A stretch of 26,612 nucleotides of DNA. Source: a virus. Its lineage: Duplodnaviria > Heunggongvirae > Uroviricota > Caudoviricetes. Made by a program: the position numbers and the translations under genes. The notes under the pieces were generated by a model. It ran no database searches. It was not told where the DNA came from and worked only from the letters and a program-made list of their open reading frames with translations. Location: the IMG/VR virus record IMGVR_UViG_2541047923_000008; one strand, given 5' to 3'. Positions 11,917-25,791 of the stretch are shown here, in pieces. Numbering within the stretch: position 1 is the first letter of the stretch; each line of letters starts with the position of its first letter.

Positions 11917-12122
11917 TTCATTTTCACTTTCTTAAATCTAACGACAGATGGCTAACATTTAAGTATTGTGAAATATTATCAAATGTAATCATCATTGATT
12001 TACAAAAGATACATTTTGCCCCGAAAGGATTTCTGTCAGAAACATCAAAAGATGATGTTCTATACTGAGAACCATGGCAACACGGGCATCTAAAGTGAAT
12101 ATGGTTTGTAATATTTTCTACC

Positions 12123-12335
12123 TCAAAGTGCCACTACATGAACAGCTGCAGGGCCTTTAGGTCCGTTCTCAATACCAAATTCGACTTCCTGATTCTCAGT
12201 TAACGTTTTGAAATCGTTGCTCTGAATAGCTGAGAAATGCACAAACACATCTTTGCTACCATCTTTCGGCGTGATGAAACCAAAACCTTTTTCAGGGTTA
12301 AACCATTTCACTAAACCAGTCATTTTGTTAGACAT
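12123..12335 (-). CDS. Cold-shock protein, CspA family (CspI/CspB-like)
   Basis: [38 protein letters not shown]... contains the RNP1 motif KGFGFI and RNP2-like VFVHF of the cold-shock domain; about 360 nt of non-coding sequence upstream, consistent with the long csp 5' UTR. Confidence 0.85.
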
Positions 12336-12698
12336 CATTATTACCTTTTGAAGAAGTTAGCCCTTGGGCAGAATGGTCCGAAAAAAAATATCAGAGAGAA
12401 AAACCAACAAGAAAATCTCAAGAGGTACAAATAATAAAATTATAACAATGACTGCTTCAGATAATTTTGTAACAAACCAGAACACCATTAACGCATGATT
12501 AACCAACCATAGCAAGGATTACTTTTGTAAAGAAAAACACACGAATGAAACAATAGCTTTATTTATTAATAAAACGTGTCATTCTGTCTAATGACCTTTT
12601 ATCTTACCCTTAAGATTTCAAGGATTTTGACTCATGGAAGAGTCCTTTTTATTTAAATTTCACATTCAGCGCTAAAAATAATCCGATTTAATATTAAT

Positions 12699-14348: not shown

Positions 14349-15482
14349 ATGCATTCGGAAAATATTGCGGCTTACGTCGGGCTGGATGTGCATAAAGAAA
14401 CGTTGGCGGTTGCTATTGCTGCACCTGAACGGCTTGGCGAAGTTCGTTATTATGGTACGATTAACAACGAAGCCCAGGCTGTACGTCGATTATTTCAGAA
14501 ATTGCAGGGACTTTACGGAAACATTCTTTCCTGCTATGAGGCTGGCCCCTGTGGTTTTGGGCTATATCATCAACTCACAGCGATGAATATAAAATGCCAG
14601 GTTATTGCCCCTTCCCGCATACCAAAATCACCGACAGACAGAATCAAAAATGATCATCGGGACGCAATTTCTCTCGCCAGGTTACTGCGGGCTGGAGAAC
14701 TTACCCCTGTCTGGATCCCTGACCTGACTCATGAAGCTATGCGGGATCTAATCAGAGCCCGTGCAGCAGCTAAACGAGACAGCAGAGTTGCCCGACAGCG
14801 AATTCTGAGCATGCTATTGCGAACAGACAAACATTATGCAGGAAAGCACTGGACAGGAAAACATCGAACCTGGTTAGCTAATCAATCATTTAGTCAGCCA
14901 TCTCAACAGATTGCTTTTCAACACTATTGTCAAAGTCTGGAGCAGATTGAAGATCGCATACTTCAACTCGACCAGGAAATATCTCGCCTGTTACCTGAGT
15001 GGTCTCTGTGCAATCTGGTCTGCCAGTTGCAGGCTCTTAAAGGTGTTGGTCAGCTAATTGCAATAACTCTGGTTGCTGAACTGGGTGATTTTTCGCGATT
15101 TTCCAATCCCAAACAGCTCATGGCTTTTCTGGGACTGGTGCCAGGTGAATATTCCAGTGGAAACAGTATTCGTCCCAGAGGAATAACAAAAGTTGGAAAC
15201 AGCGAACTGAGACGTCTGCTTTACGAAGCCGCCTGGTCTTATCGTACACCTGCAAAAGTTGGGGCATGGCTTATATATTACCGACCGGACTCTGTAACAC
15301 AATATTCCAAAGATATTGCATGGAAAGCTCAACAACGATTGTGTTCTCGTTACCGAAGTCTGACAGCAAAAGGGAAAAAATCACAAGTAGCCATTACGGC
15401 GGTGGCTCGTGAGTTGACTGGATTTATGTGGGATATTGCACTTGCTGCCCAATCATCATTCAGTCAGCAGAAGCAAAATTAA
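14349..15482 (+). CDS. IS110-family (DEDD) transposase/recombinase
   Basis: 377-aa ORF; N-terminal VGLDVHKETLAVAI motif typical of the IS110-family DEDD domain and C-terminal helix-hairpin-helix-like region (LKGVGQLIAITLVAELGDFSRF); strong GAGGAGG Shine-Dalgarno. Confidence 0.85.
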   Translation: MHSENIAAYVGLDVHKETLAVAIAAPERLGEVRYYGTINNEAQAVRRLFQKLQGLYGNILSCYEAGPCGFGLYHQLTAMNIKCQVIAPSRIPKSPTDRIKNDHRDAISLARLLRAGELTPVWIPDLTHEAMRDLIRARAAAKRDSRVARQRILSMLLRTDKHYAGKHWTGKHRTWLANQSFSQPSQQIAFQHYCQSLEQIEDRILQLDQEISRLLPEWSLCNLVCQLQALKGVGQLIAITLVAELGDFSRFSNPKQLMAFLGLVPGEYSSGNSIRPRGITKVGNSELRRLLYEAAWSYRTPAKVGAWLIYYRPDSVTQYSKDIAWKAQQRLCSRYRSLTAKGKKSQVAITAVARELTGFMWDIALAAQSSFSQQKQN

Positions 15483-16557: not shown

Positions 16558-16632
<75 letters not shown>

Positions 16633-16635
16633 ATA

Positions 16636-16711
<76 letters not shown>

Positions 16712-16713
16712 AC

Positions 16714-16790
16714 TGGACCGCCACCGGGGACTCGAACCTCGCACACTCAACTTAAAGGGTTGACGCTCTTTCCTGATGAGCTAGTGGCGG
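16714..16790 (-). tRNA. tRNA-like gene, possibly tRNA-Lys (UUU) or a degenerate tRNA pseudogene
   Basis: Reverse complement CCGCCACTAGCTCATCAGGAAAGAGCGTCAACCCTTTAAGTTGAGTGTGCGAGGTTCGAGTCCCCGGTGGCGGTCCA; good acceptor, D and anticodon stems, but C at position 33 and one T-stem mismatch. Confidence 0.4.
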
Positions 16791-16791
16791 C

Positions 16792-16867
16792 TGGTGGCCC
16801 TTGCTGGATTTGAACCAGCGACCTGGCGATTATGAGTCGCTCGCTCTCACCACTGAGCTAAAGGGCC
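16792..16867 (-). tRNA. tRNA with anticodon CAU (Ile2/lysidine-type or Met), ileZ-like as in lambdoid Stx phages
   Basis: Reverse complement GGCCCTTTAGCTCAGTGGTGAGAGCGAGCGACTCATAATCGCCAGGTCGCTGGTTCAAATCCAGCAAGGGCCACCA; resembles E. coli ileX-type tRNA as recalled; anticodon loop CUCAUAA. Confidence 0.7.
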
Positions 16868-19745: not shown

Positions 19746-20138
19746 CTACTGCCCTGTTTTAACGAAGTTTTTAAAGGAAACAACTGCCTGATAGGGGTTT
19801 GGTTGACAGCCAAACATATTATCGCAAAAAGGCTTGATGAAAATTCTTGAGGATCCATCTTCATTTGGCATTTTACTCACTTGATAAGCGAGGAATGGAC
19901 TATTTGGAGAGGGATTATAAGTGGAAATTAGCGTGTCTGTCGCCGTTTGAATTTTCCATGAGGAATTATTAGCCAACCAGAATTGCGCTCGTTTCCAATA
20001 AAAGTCACATTGCTTTTCATCATTACATGTTAGTGGCTTCATTGCTTCTGCTTTCAACGCTGGATCGACCTTTGCTGCACACCCTCCCAACATTACTGTT
20101 GCAATCATTACACCTGCGACTAAAACAAGTTTCTTCAT
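19746..20138 (-). CDS. Cysteine-rich lipoprotein of unknown function (moron)
   Basis: 130-aa ORF with a signal peptide and lipobox (MKKLVLVAGVMIATVMLGGC) and four further Cys; AT-rich, flanked by terminators. Confidence 0.7.
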   Translation of the reverse strand: MKKLVLVAGVMIATVMLGGCAAKVDPALKAEAMKPLTCNDEKQCDFYWKRAQFWLANNSSWKIQTATDTLISTYNPSPNSPFLAYQVSKMPNEDGSSRIFIKPFCDNMFGCQPNPYQAVVSFKNFVKTGQ

Positions 20139-20281
20139 CTCCCTGCCCCATCAATAAAAGTTCGGTTCTCTAATAACTAGAGTTAATCAACGGAAAAAAC
20201 GCCGAAGCGGGTTAAGTGCGGGTGCGTTGAGGATGCCTGACACATCAGAGGTGGCGAGGGATTTCTCCCCCGCCAGGTCTC

Positions 20282-20437
20282 TTACTCCTCAGGTTCGTAA
20301 GCTGTGAAGACAGCGACCTCCGTCTGGCCGGTTCGGATTCGTACCTCGCAGAGGTCTTTCCTCGTTACCAGTGCCGTCACAATGACGGTTAAACAGATGA
20401 CGATCAGGGCGATTAACATCGCCTTTTGCTGCTTCAT
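20282..20437 (-). CDS. hok: Hok-family membrane toxin (type I toxin-antitoxin)
   Basis: 51-aa product MKQQKAMLIALIVICLTVIVTALVTRKDLCEVRIRTGQTEVAVFTAYEPEE matches my memory of HokD/RelF; the ORF track shows a 19-codon in-frame upstream extension. Confidence 0.85.
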   Translation of the reverse strand: MKQQKAMLIALIVICLTVIVTALVTRKDLCEVRIRTGQTEVAVFTAYEPEE

Positions 20438-20652
20438 AGCCTGCTTCTCCTTGCCTTTCGGCACGTAAGAGGCTAACCTAGATTTGCCGTTCATAGATTG
20501 AGCCTCAGATTAATGTTAAGCGTCTTGCAGGACGCGTAATGTTAACTGGGGCTTTTCTCTATCTGCCTTTGGTGTTCATGCCTGAGGCAGATAGCCTCAA
20601 GCACCCGCAGCAATTCTACTTAACTCACGTCACCTCGCCAATATAAAATCAA

Positions 20653-20943
20653 TCAGAAAGGCGATCCATAAGAACAATAGCAAGACAATAAATCGCCATT
20701 ACAGCCGTAATAGCCAGCGCACATTTGAGAACCAGCACCACAACCTCCTGTATTGGACGTACACCAGTCCTGATAAATATGAGGATGTCTCGTCAGTGAT
20801 TCAATACAACTATTGGGTATAGTTTCTGTGATTTTGTTCTGTAGAAATGGAACATAATAACCTGTCACCACCAGCACTTCTTTAAATACGCCAAGTCCGA
20901 CGCAAGCTAACCTTCTAGCCCGCTTTGAGCGAGAAGCAGACAT
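20653..20943 (-). CDS. Hypothetical Cys/Gly-rich small protein; coding status doubtful
   Basis: 96-aa ORF with a basic, hydrophobic N-terminus and a Cys/Gly/Tyr-rich C-terminus (CTSNTGGCGAGSQMCAGYYGCNGDLLSCYCSYGSPF); no Shine-Dalgarno. Confidence 0.25.
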   Translation of the reverse strand: MSASRSKRARRLACVGLGVFKEVLVVTGYYVPFLQNKITETIPNSCIESLTRHPHIYQDWCTSNTGGCGAGSQMCAGYYGCNGDLLSCYCSYGSPF

Positions 20944-21231
20944 TTACTTAACTGGATAGCAAGAGACTTCATATATCATGGTTGATCCCGGAGTTTTCAA
21001 TAATGGAAAGACATTGCCCGTATGATCGGGCCGTAACCACATTAGAAGCAGGTGCCCTTTGTGAATTTTGATTGTGTCAACCTATCTGTTTTGAATTTTT
21101 TATAAAAAATATTCGCAAATTTGTGAATTATGAGAGACAAACGAGCATGGACAACCAATGTTACTTTCATACACAATGAAGCAACATGATAAAAGTACAC
21201 TGACTTTAGCAAGTAAATTTAGGAGATTGCG

Positions 21232-22566
21232 ATGTTTAGCTTAATCATGGCCGGAGAACCGGACGTTTTTGACCGCTGGCCGTGTATGGACCCTGGGCTT
21301 AAAGAAGGCGAGGAAAGATTCTCGATGTCCCGCATGCTGGAAGGCACCCCAAGCGATATTTACAGTAAATTAACACCAATAAGACCCGATACCTTAAGAG
21401 AACTCGCCAAGCTACCAGTATTGTTCATGACCGAAACTTATACAAAAGATGATGAATATGATACAAACAAGTACATCAGGATCAGACTTGGGGAAATAAG
21501 AAACTTACGTAAAGATGGTGGCGATATTTTATTTTCTTTCAAGATTAATCATAATTTTGGAGAAATAACGAATCCCCAAACGACATTATATAAAGAAACC
21601 CTAGGGCTAGGATCTTTCGGGTTAAGTCGTACACATTGGGCAGTAAAAAATAAGGATTTAAATATTGTTCTGGAATCACTTGGTTTAAACAAACAAAATA
21701 GCCAACTGAAAGGTACAATCAAATTAAAAAAACAAACATACCCAGTAGTCGAGAATATTATAGATTATCTTAGTTTCATAAAGAAAAACTTTCGTGATGG
21801 TCTCATTACCTTTTATCGTGGACACTCTAAAAGCTCATATGAGCTTGTCCCCTCTCTTTACAGAAAAAATCAAAACGGGACGTACAGGCATCTTGCTTCA
21901 GAATCTGATTTAGTACGTGAAATACTCAGCGCAAGACCAAATGAATTTAAGGAGGATAAATTTACGATTGATAAACTTGTCCGCATGCAGCATTATGGCT
22001 TGCCTACAAGACTCTTAGACATTACATCTAACCCACTGATAGCATTATATTTTGCTTGCTGTTCGAACCCCGATGAAAACGGACAGGTGATTTCGTTTTC
22101 AACAAATAGAAAGAAAATTAAATATTTCGACTCAGATACAGTGAGCTGTATAGCAAACTTATCACTTTTATCTTACGAAGAGTTGGAAAAATTGTCCTCC
22201 TCTGATTCCAGAAAAGGTAATATGGAGTTATCTGAACTCACGGATAAACTTGCAGACCTTATACAGAATGAAAAATCATATTTCAGAAACAGAATAATTC
22301 CTGATGACTTAAGGAAAGTTGTTTTCCTTAAGGCTAAAATAAATAATGAACGCATACAATCTCAGGCAGGAGCTTTTCTTCTGTTCGGACTTGATCCCAT
22401 TTTACCGGAAACAGATGCTGAGTTTCCTCTTAACAGAGTGGAGATAGCGAACAAAAATAAAATTCTGGAAGAGCTGGCGCAGCTTAATATATCCGAAAGC
22501 ACTGTATATCCCAGCATGGAGAAAACGGCAGCAGAAATTGCAACAAAGTTTTTATCGGTATCATAA
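21232..22566 (+). CDS. FRG-domain protein with an uncharacterised N-terminal domain of about 190 aa; candidate prophage accessory or defence gene
   Basis: 444-aa ORF with AGGAG Shine-Dalgarno 6 nt upstream; contains the FRG-family motifs as I recall them: FYRG (aa 194-197), QHYGLPTRLLD (aa 253-263), NERIQSQAGAF (aa 371-381); AT-rich, opposite strand to the surrounding phage operon. Confidence 0.8.
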   Translation: MFSLIMAGEPDVFDRWPCMDPGLKEGEERFSMSRMLEGTPSDIYSKLTPIRPDTLRELAKLPVLFMTETYTKDDEYDTNKYIRIRLGEIRNLRKDGGDILFSFKINHNFGEITNPQTTLYKETLGLGSFGLSRTHWAVKNKDLNIVLESLGLNKQNSQLKGTIKLKKQTYPVVENIIDYLSFIKKNFRDGLITFYRGHSKSSYELVPSLYRKNQNGTYRHLASESDLVREILSARPNEFKEDKFTIDKLVRMQHYGLPTRLLDITSNPLIALYFACCSNPDENGQVISFSTNRKKIKYFDSDTVSCIANLSLLSYEELEKLSSSDSRKGNMELSELTDKLADLIQNEKSYFRNRIIPDDLRKVVFLKAKINNERIQSQAGAFLLFGLDPILPETDAEFPLNRVEIANKNKILEELAQLNISESTVYPSMEKTAAEIATKFLSVS

Positions 22567-25084: not shown

Positions 25085-25155
25085 CCAAAAGTTTAATAAT
25101 CAAAACCAAAGAAAGTCAAGAAACAAAACCATCTGTGTTTTAAAATCAAAACATG
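25085..25155. promoter_or_regulatory. oR-type operator/promoter region between cro-like and cI: operator palindrome GTGTTTT-N6-AAAACAT (25135-25154) and candidate pR (-35 TTGACT, -10 TAAACT on the minus strand)
   Basis: 7-6-7 inverted repeat overlapping the cI start codon; additional GTTTTG/CAAAAC half-site-like motifs at about 25088-25130; same palindrome recurs at oL. Confidence 0.5.
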
Positions 25156-25791
25156 AGCAAGCAAACAATATCTGAACGCATAACCCAACGTATGCATGCG
25201 CTAAACCTGAAAGGCAAAGACCTTGTCAATGCCACTGGCGCATCAAAAGGCTCCGTAAGTCAATGGATGAACGGTGGAGGAGCGCCGTCCTCGCGTTACA
25301 TAAGTTCACTGGCAAAGATATTGAAAGTAAACGAAAATTGGCTTCTTAATGGAGGAGAGTTAAATACAGGTGATTCGCTTGATCTATCTTTACCGCCGAT
25401 AAAAACGGTTCCGCTACTATCACTTCAGCAGGCAGCAAGCTGGAGTGATTATATGAAAAATTCCTCAATAACCTCTTGTGTGCAGCTTGTCGGAGAAATC
25501 CCGGCCAATACCTTTGCAGTTGTTCTAGAGAGTGACAGTATGTCAACATCTGGTGGGGGGGTTTCCATCCCAAATGGTTCAACAGTTTTTGTTGATCCCG
25601 ATCGAACCGTACAACCAGGAAATATTGTCCTTGCCTTACCCAAAGGGACCACAACACCTGTCATTCGTAAACTGGAGATAGAAGGGCCGGATATTCTTTT
25701 AGTCCCCACGAATCCTCGCTACCCTTCAATTATGCTGGATGATCTATCTTGCATATTGGGCGTATGCTTTAAAATTCAACAAGATATTTAA
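25153..25791 (+). CDS. cI: CI-type prophage repressor (N-terminal HTH, C-terminal LexA/S24-like autopeptidase domain)
   Basis: 212-aa ORF; HTH region (LKGKDLVNATGASKGSVSQWMNG); C-terminal Ser (LESDSMS) and Lys (VIRKLE) spaced like the S24 catalytic dyad. Confidence 0.85.
   Translation: MSKQTISERITQRMHALNLKGKDLVNATGASKGSVSQWMNGGGAPSSRYISSLAKILKVNENWLLNGGELNTGDSLDLSLPPIKTVPLLSLQQAASWSDYMKNSSITSCVQLVGEIPANTFAVVLESDSMSTSGGGVSIPNGSTVFVDPDRTVQPGNIVLALPKGTTTPVIRKLEIEGPDILLVPTNPRYPSIMLDDLSCILGVCFKIQQDI

Follow-up and report, generated by a model that had tools for sequence, protein, structure and literature searches.

The toxin gene and its prophage setting

The window, by which we mean the whole stretch of 26,612 nucleotides analysed here, carried a hok toxin gene on its minus strand (20282-20437), encoding the 51-aa protein MKQQKAMLIALIVICLTVIVTALVTRKDLCEVRIRTGQTEVAVFTAYEPEE. 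The ORF matched Pfam HOK_GEF (PF01848) with E=3e-23 and 81.6 bits (cut-off 22), and the peptide was 100% identical to HokD of Escherichia coli K-12 (UniProt HOKD_ECOLI), which confirmed the 51-aa Hok-family toxin gene claimed in the first-pass annotation. A GGAG sequence was located at 20450-20447, 9 nt 5' of the hok ATG. The mok-like in-frame extension, also reported there, was found as a mok ORF of 70 codons (20282-20494, minus strand), which is in frame with hok and ends at the same stop codon, so that hok forms its last 51 codons. The mok ATG was preceded by GAGG 8 nt upstream. The mok ORF matched the PHROG family 'MokW-like host killing' (E=7.7e-33), its exact 70-aa sequence was present on at least 1000 public contigs, and the in-frame layout was the same as that of the annotated mokW/hokW.

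Ribosomes starting at the mok ATG must yield a 70-aa protein, as the frame and the stop codon are shared. The active product could thus be this in-frame Mok-Hok fusion of 70 aa instead of the 51-aa Hok, with mok being more than a leader, and the same arrangement in mokW/hokW agrees with this possibility. We regard it as improbable. A separate GGAG precedes the hok ATG by 9 nt, and the 51 aa of Hok are toxic by themselves, as the HokD peptide, in the form found in K-12, was toxic in published assays (bioRxiv 10.1101/2025.08.07.668861). Furthermore, the Mok-specific N-terminus was the most variable stretch, reading MNGKS here and MLNTC in MokW, a variability consistent with selection acting on the RNA target loop and not on the protein.

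The window is part of a lambdoid prophage. The locus was surrounded by genes for a CI-like repressor, a YdaT-like protein, DUF977 and DUF968 proteins, RusA and Q, and by a tRNA cluster. The strand of hok also carried the YdaT-like, DUF977, DUF968, RusA and Q genes and four tRNA genes, followed by lysis and terminase-sized ORFs, and the gene for the CI-like S24 repressor (25153-25791) was divergent. The region was syntenic with a prophage of E. coli strain 165 carrying integrase, terminase, portal and capsid genes. The gene order and the synteny indicated that hok has the orientation of the early-right operon and is flanked by the replication genes on one side and Q on the other. The prophage location given in the first-pass annotation therefore agreed with both the phage gene set around the locus and the synteny with the E. 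coli prophage.

The genes adjoining the hok locus were a lipoprotein-like gene downstream (19746-20138) and a divergent FRG-domain gene upstream (21232-22566, plus strand, 444 aa). Neither relB nor relE was found among the neighbouring ORFs, and the reported absence of adjacent relBE genes was thus correct. The FRG-domain protein matched the PADLOC candidate defence family PDC-S15 (E=1e-98). The corresponding slot of other E. coli prophages, on the upstream side of the hok block, was occupied by a DUF7380 gene, by an AAA ATPase gene with a hypothetical gene, or by a methyltransferase gene with a hypothetical gene. Judged from these gene contents, the slot beyond the hok block looks like a variable cargo or defence slot. 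The junction on the FRG side was common to 28 genomes only.

Several other features were identified in the window. The four tRNA genes downstream of Q (16558-16867, minus strand) were called by ARAGORN as Met(cat), Lys(ttt), Thr(tgt) and Gly(tcc), and the one called Met(cat) corresponds to an annotated tRNA-Ile in the syntenic E. coli prophage. An ORF for an IS110-family transposase (Pfam DEDD_Tnp_IS110 and Transposase_20; 14349-15482, plus strand) was located between the Q/tRNA/DUF1327 region and the lysis genes, and the late operon of the prophage may be disrupted by this IS110-family element. A full-length match to the cspA thermoregulator (12077-12493, minus strand, 107.5 bits) indicates that the prophage carries a cold-shock-protein gene.

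The hok mRNA, its alternative structures and the antisense RNA

A sigma-70-like promoter for hok/mok was identified at 20613-20641 on the minus strand, consisting of TTGGCG (20641-20636), a 17-nt spacer and TAGAAT (20618-20613), with 9 of 12 consensus matches in a generic promoter scan. The transcription start was inferred to be at about 20606-20609, where both the match to the Rfam model and the complementarity between the 5' and 3' ends of the transcript begin. The covariance-model search suggested in the first-pass annotation was clearly positive; RF01794 matched at 20432-20606 with 111.7 bits (gathering score 59; E=6e-25), covering model positions 1-157 of 157, spanning 175 nt on the hok-sense strand and ending at the hok AUG. 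Although RF01794 is named 'sok antitoxin', the model as built describes the leader of the hok mRNA and not the antisense RNA of ~70 nt. A match of this orientation and extent can neither place Sok nor give its strand. The sole plus-strand match of the same model at 20548-20670 (19.7 bits, E=0.07) was regarded as noise.

The full-length mRNA of approximately 410 nt (20195-20606, minus strand) gave a minimum free energy of -167 kcal/mol (z=-7.8), and none of 100 shuffled sequences was as stable. For the analysis of conservation, a scan of representative genomes gave 53 loci, from which 35 distinct mRNAs from Escherichia, Kluyvera, Photorhabdus, Pantoea, Erwinia and others were aligned. These 35 loci were picked by the terminal motifs GGGYGCTT and GCRCCC, a choice that by itself accounts for part of the invariance of the outermost pairs, and the closed and open structures examined were derived from the window sequence.

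The translational activator element tac, GGGUGCUUGAGG, was located at the 5' end of the mRNA (20595-20606, minus strand), and the fold-back inhibition element fbi, CCUCAACGCACCC, at 20220-20232 (minus strand). The two elements were paired over 12 bp in the minimum free energy structure, and a perfect 9-nt complement was present between 20217-20225 and 20601-20609. Across the 35 loci, 91.4% of cells of the tac/fbi helix were paired, and four pairs had changed on both sides. The partner of tac was fbi in the full-length fold and ucb, the upstream complementary box or anti-SD (AAGCCCC, 20548-20554, minus strand), in the 3'-trimmed fold. In the closed fold, AGCC of ucb (20553-20550) was paired with GGCU of the mok SD region (20504-20501). 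In the trimmed fold, ucb was paired with tac as AAGC.CCC, and this tac/ucb helix was 99.6% paired in the 35 loci. Position 4 of tac, bulged in tac/ucb and paired in tac/fbi, covaried with fbi, being UA in 25 loci, CG in 9 and UG in 1.

The trimmed mRNA contained the Sok-target hairpin (20469-20506, minus strand), composed of the mok SD GAGG (20506-20503) and dcb (AGCCUC, 20474-20469). In the trimmed fold, GAGGCU of the SD region (20506-20501) was paired with dcb and the loop at 20481-20493 carried the mok start codon. The GAGG/CCUC pairs were kept in 34-35 of the 35 loci. The start region of hok (20428-20442) was predicted to be base-paired with 20299-20314 in the full-length and trimmed folds alike, and four pairs of this helix had changed on both sides in the 35 loci. 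This pairing fits a requirement for mok translation to open the hok start.

Folding of the first 45 nt, corresponding to the nascent transcript, gave a metastable 5' hairpin at 20578-20604 (minus strand) formed by GUGCUUGAGGC and GCCUCAGGCAU. The upper tac-stem hairpin (20559-20594, minus strand) had a 10-bp stem between 20585-20594 and 20559-20568, with 92.6% of cells paired in the 35 loci and three pairs changed on both sides. The core of this stem corresponded to the 9-bp inverted repeat noted earlier in the leader. On the plus strand, the repeat is formed by CTATCTGCC at 20559-20567 and GGCAGATAG at 20586-20594, within a longer imperfect inverted repeat of 21 nt; the repeat itself was real, and the positions first given for it (about 20561 and about 20587) were off by 1-2 nt. 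A stable 3' hairpin with a 10-bp stem (20252-20275, minus strand) was seen in all folds and should form the 3' end of the mRNA once it has been trimmed and become translatable. It showed 87.8% of cells paired in the 35 loci, together with compensatory changes.

Taken as a whole, the closed structure was paired in 88.7% of cells across the 35 loci, compared with 40-48% when the partners were slid by 1-3 columns, and 18 of its pairs had changed on both sides. For the open structure, the corresponding values were 84.4%, 40-51% and 12 pairs. The folds of the full-length, 3'-trimmed and nascent RNAs thus represented the closed, open and metastable conformations, which have been described for the hok mRNA of plasmid R1 (PMC9841398). 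With tac/fbi, ucb/SD, tac/ucb, SD/dcb and the metastable hairpin all detected, the leader possessed the conserved fold elements of a hok mRNA. The coding region included a further conserved site, UACG at the Tyr47 codon of hok (20296-20299, minus strand), which is the motif for A-to-I editing by TadA and is expected to allow recoding of Tyr to Cys. All 35 aligned hok loci, which come from at least five genera, had this UACG, and the hokD mRNA of K-12 is edited at this site at a low level of ~6% (PMC12214031).

At the 3' end, the homology to hokW and K-12 hokD stopped just past the fbi element. A terminator-like hairpin followed at 20194-20209 (minus strand), in which CGC-UUCG-GCG (20200-20209) forms a stem of 3 bp before U6. 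The sequence was CCGCTTCGGCG-TTTTTT here and CCCGCTTCGGCGGG-T4-6 in the relatives, with two G residues fewer here, and the stem of 3 bp compares with 5 bp (CCCGC/GCGGG) in the relatives. The 2-nt loss was common to all the E. coli copies of 99.5% identity. This loss weakens the terminator, and the 3' end, and hence the kinetics of trimming, may differ from those in the relatives. Read-through from hok into the lipoprotein-like gene is possible. Downstream of hok, for which a weak 3' hairpin had first been described, this 3-bp hairpin was thus found beside the strong one at 20252-20275. The extent of 20282-20650 assigned to the locus proved inaccurate, since the 3' side reaches approximately 20195, leaving fbi and the terminator outside that range, and the promoter extends to 20641.

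A promoter for the antisense RNA was assigned to 20451-20479 on the plus strand, with TTGCCT (20451-20456), a 17-nt spacer and TAACCT (20474-20479). TAACCT is the -10 hexamer replaced by Takada et al. to silence sokW (primer YO-421, PMC8621323). The promoter position was kept in the 35 loci, with TTGCCT or TTGACC as the -35 hexamer and a spacer of 17-18 nt. With 7 of 12 matches, it fell under the threshold of the generic promoter scan and was not called, and neither the hok nor the sok terminator was called by a generic terminator scan. The sok promoter and both terminators were placed by homology to sokW, folding and conservation.

The predicted Sok RNA of ~72 nt (20486-~20558, plus strand), whose coordinates were transferred from the sokW annotation of phage 933W, was complementary to the SD and start codon of mok. 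Its fold had a free energy of -33 kcal/mol (z=-5.8), with none of 200 shuffled sequences as stable, and was predicted to begin with seven unpaired nucleotides (the 5' tail), which lead into a long hairpin and then a U-rich 3' end. An antisense Sok-like RNA had been expected on the plus strand over about 20440-20520. The strand agreed with our prediction, while the range was shifted by ~40 nt, covering only the sok promoter and the 5' half of Sok.

The 5' tail of Sok, which corresponds to mok codons 1-5 (20480-20493), was variable; 6 of the first 20 nt differed from sokW, and other hokD-type loci had tail versions of their own. The remainder differed from sokW at 1 of 51 nt. Because of the differences in the first 20 nt, cross-recognition between the Sok encoded here and the sokW system appears doubtful. 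Such variability of the tail would fit selection for non-cross-reacting pairs in genomes with up to 10 hok places.

Distribution, relatives and the upstream block

The hok/sok system is a textbook type I toxin-antitoxin system, and the element found here is already thoroughly known. The 551 bases around the locus showed 99.5% identity to many E. coli chromosomes in which the CDS is annotated as hokD, and a match was present in 4729 of 5426 complete E. coli genomes, with a median of two such places in each. Only three differences separated the locus from the best matches, all located upstream of the promoter, and the mRNA region was identical in more than 100 genomes. Temperate phages that have been isolated, Tritos and mEp460 among them, also carried the locus. 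Loci of the hokD type with 88-89% identity were detected on plasmids of ~90-100 kb from E. coli, E. fergusonii, Shigella and Salmonella (H47-H56). The phage search also returned one Punavirus (P1-like) record, and the plasmid carriers may be phage-plasmids. The enrichment of hok in prophages has already been documented by a survey (bioRxiv 10.1101/2025.08.07.668861).

The hokW/mokW/sokW locus of phage 933W (Sakai prophage Sp5), in which all three genes are annotated, showed 93.5% DNA identity over the whole mRNA. The two loci share the in-frame mok, the same tac, ucb, dcb and fbi, and a lambdoid phage as carrier, and both the -10 hexamer of sok and the Sok hairpin are identical. HokW and the Hok encoded here were identical at 47 of 51 residues, the four differing residues being C-terminal. 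[quoted passage not shown] In that study, Hok was toxic and was neutralised by Sok with RNase III and Hfq partly needed; after mitomycin C treatment Sok was gone, Hok was produced in a RecA-dependent manner, and phage release was increased twofold (PMC8621323).

In comparison with hokD (relF) in the Qin prophage of K-12, the Hok protein and the 3' UTR including fbi were identical, and the type of prophage neighbourhood was alike, with DUF968/ydfU and Q downstream. The homology to K-12 hokD starts ~17 nt before the hok ATG, as the leader is replaced there by the 3' end of relE. Missing from the K-12 gene are therefore both promoters (hok and sok), the tac and ucb elements, the start of mok and the target of Sok, all of which the complete, ancestral-type locus of the window retains. 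The relBE-hokD operon arrangement of Qin was not found in the window, where the full leader is present and no relB or relE adjoins hok. The K-12-type replacement of the hokD leader by the 3' end of relE was also seen in one Kluyvera genome (L007, L028 and L044 being from E. coli and Kluyvera sp.), indicating that the relBE-hokD fusion is not confined to E. coli K-12.

As most hok loci of K-12 have decayed through rearrangement, IS insertion or point mutation, the present locus might be a relic as well. K-12 hokD itself is such a relic, and an IS110-family transposase is encoded in the window, albeit elsewhere (14349-15482). This explanation is highly improbable; IS insertions and frameshifts were sought between 20195 and 20641 and none was found, and the promoter, tac, ucb, SD, dcb, fbi, the sok promoter and both ORFs were intact.

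The hok/sok (parB) locus of plasmid R1 agrees with the present one in its elements, in the predicted folding pathway and in having a Sok that overlies the mok translation start. The Hok proteins are more distant, R1 Hok being ~44% identical to HokW (PMC8621323; a value given for HokW and taken here for comparison). In contrast to the in-frame mok of the present locus, mok of R1 is evidently in another frame, because stop codons can arise past the hok start without truncating Hok, and the translational coupling of mok and hok may thus differ in detail from that of R1. R1 carries a plasmid locus, and it is for R1 only that post-segregational killing has been demonstrated, whereas the present locus is in a chromosomal prophage. 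Loci of the chromosomal hokC/mokC/sokC (gef) type (L015-L022), with 80-82% Hok identity, shared the architecture, and all elements could be aligned. They differed in the absence of an 18-20-nt extension of the Sok-terminator hairpin, seen as an alignment gap at columns 74-91, and in their fixed chromosomal site as opposed to a prophage.

Immediately upstream, a block of ~300 bp (20640-20944, minus strand) abuts the hok promoter. It was present with 88-96% identity in 1719 of 5426 E. coli genomes, always beside hokD and never annotated by PGAP, and the gene past the block varied. The block contained a hydrophobic ORF of 30 codons (20649-20741, minus strand; MVLVLKCALAITAVMAIYCLAIVLMDRLSD). Its start codon is GTG, preceded by AGGAGG at a distance of 5 nt. 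This ORF was intact in nine relatives, including phages Tritos and HannyBb, and a few GenBank records list it as 'membrane protein' or 'hypothetical protein'. It gave no match in Pfam, PHROG or NCBIfam, and the variable sites among the nine relatives were distributed as 4/5/6 over the three codon positions, giving no clear coding signature. A hairpin at 20695-20714, overlapping the ORF, stayed paired by way of wobble changes and could be a terminator. The block as a structured RNA was rejected (fold z=-0.4, no Rfam match), and a plus-strand promoter-like site at 20620-20649, directed antisense into the ORF, was attributed to chance because its -10 hexamer was not conserved in relatives. The block could encode a second small membrane peptide, the 30-codon ORF, or act as an insulating terminator, forming one mobile unit with hok/sok at the edge of the cargo slot that holds the PDC-S15 candidate defence gene; we consider this rather unlikely and offer it only tentatively. 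In a related reading, antiterminated early-right transcription through the block and the hok/sok unit upon induction would silence sok.

Proposed working and role in the prophage

We conclude that the locus is very probably a complete hokD-type hok/mok/sok type I toxin-antitoxin module working in a manner similar to that of R1. The steps described below were inferred from the R1 paradigm and hokW-sokW, and the structures involved were supported by prediction and covariation. Transcription from the hok promoter (20641-20613) would produce the ~410-nt mRNA, and during its synthesis the 5' hairpin would sequester tac. In the finished mRNA, pairing of tac (20606-20595) with fbi (20232-20220) and of ucb with the mok SD would give a stable molecule that is not translatable and does not bind Sok. 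Slow 3' trimming to the hairpin at 20275-20252 would remove fbi, and the 5' end would then refold as tac/ucb, with the SD/dcb hairpin presenting the mok SD and start codon. The short-lived Sok (20486-~20558, plus strand) would bind this hairpin by its free 5' tail and block the translation of mok, and consequently that of hok, because the hok start region is base-paired. The duplex of Sok and mRNA would be cleaved, as expected by RNase III. Once Sok synthesis stops, the stored trimmed mRNA would be translated, and Hok would enter the inner membrane and kill or lyse the cell.

The likely triggers in a prophage would be induction, a halt in transcription caused by an infecting phage, or loss of the element, among which induction has been shown to act on hokW-sokW (PMC8621323). 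The first-pass annotation suggested prophage stabilisation or phage exclusion as possible roles; the only direct experiment on a close relative, that with hokW-sokW, pointed instead to assistance in lysis and in the release of phage upon induction (PMC8621323).

An intact sequence does not guarantee R1-like behaviour. The intact chromosomal loci hokA, hokB and hokC showed neither post-segregational killing nor activation by rifampicin in published tests, and the present locus might likewise be structurally intact, transcribed but repressed and physiologically silent, releasing too little Hok to have an effect and persisting by hitch-hiking with the prophage. The weak terminator and the low editing of hokD at Tyr47 (~6%), an editing that supplies the cysteine conserved in other Hok proteins, are in line with such silence. 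We judge it unlikely, though not negligibly so, as all the regulatory elements have been kept with compensatory changes and more than 100 genomes share an identical mRNA region. In addition, hokW-sokW, with 93.5% identity, makes Hok on induction and alters lysis and phage yield, and the HokD peptide is toxic when expressed.

The main significance of the locus lies in its correct annotation. The window holds a complete locus with the Hok peptide of K-12 hokD, a gene whose K-12 copy has lost its leader. It could thus serve as a natural template for studying the role of a HokD-type module in a prophage, for which help with lysis on induction, abortive infection and stabilisation of the element are the candidates.
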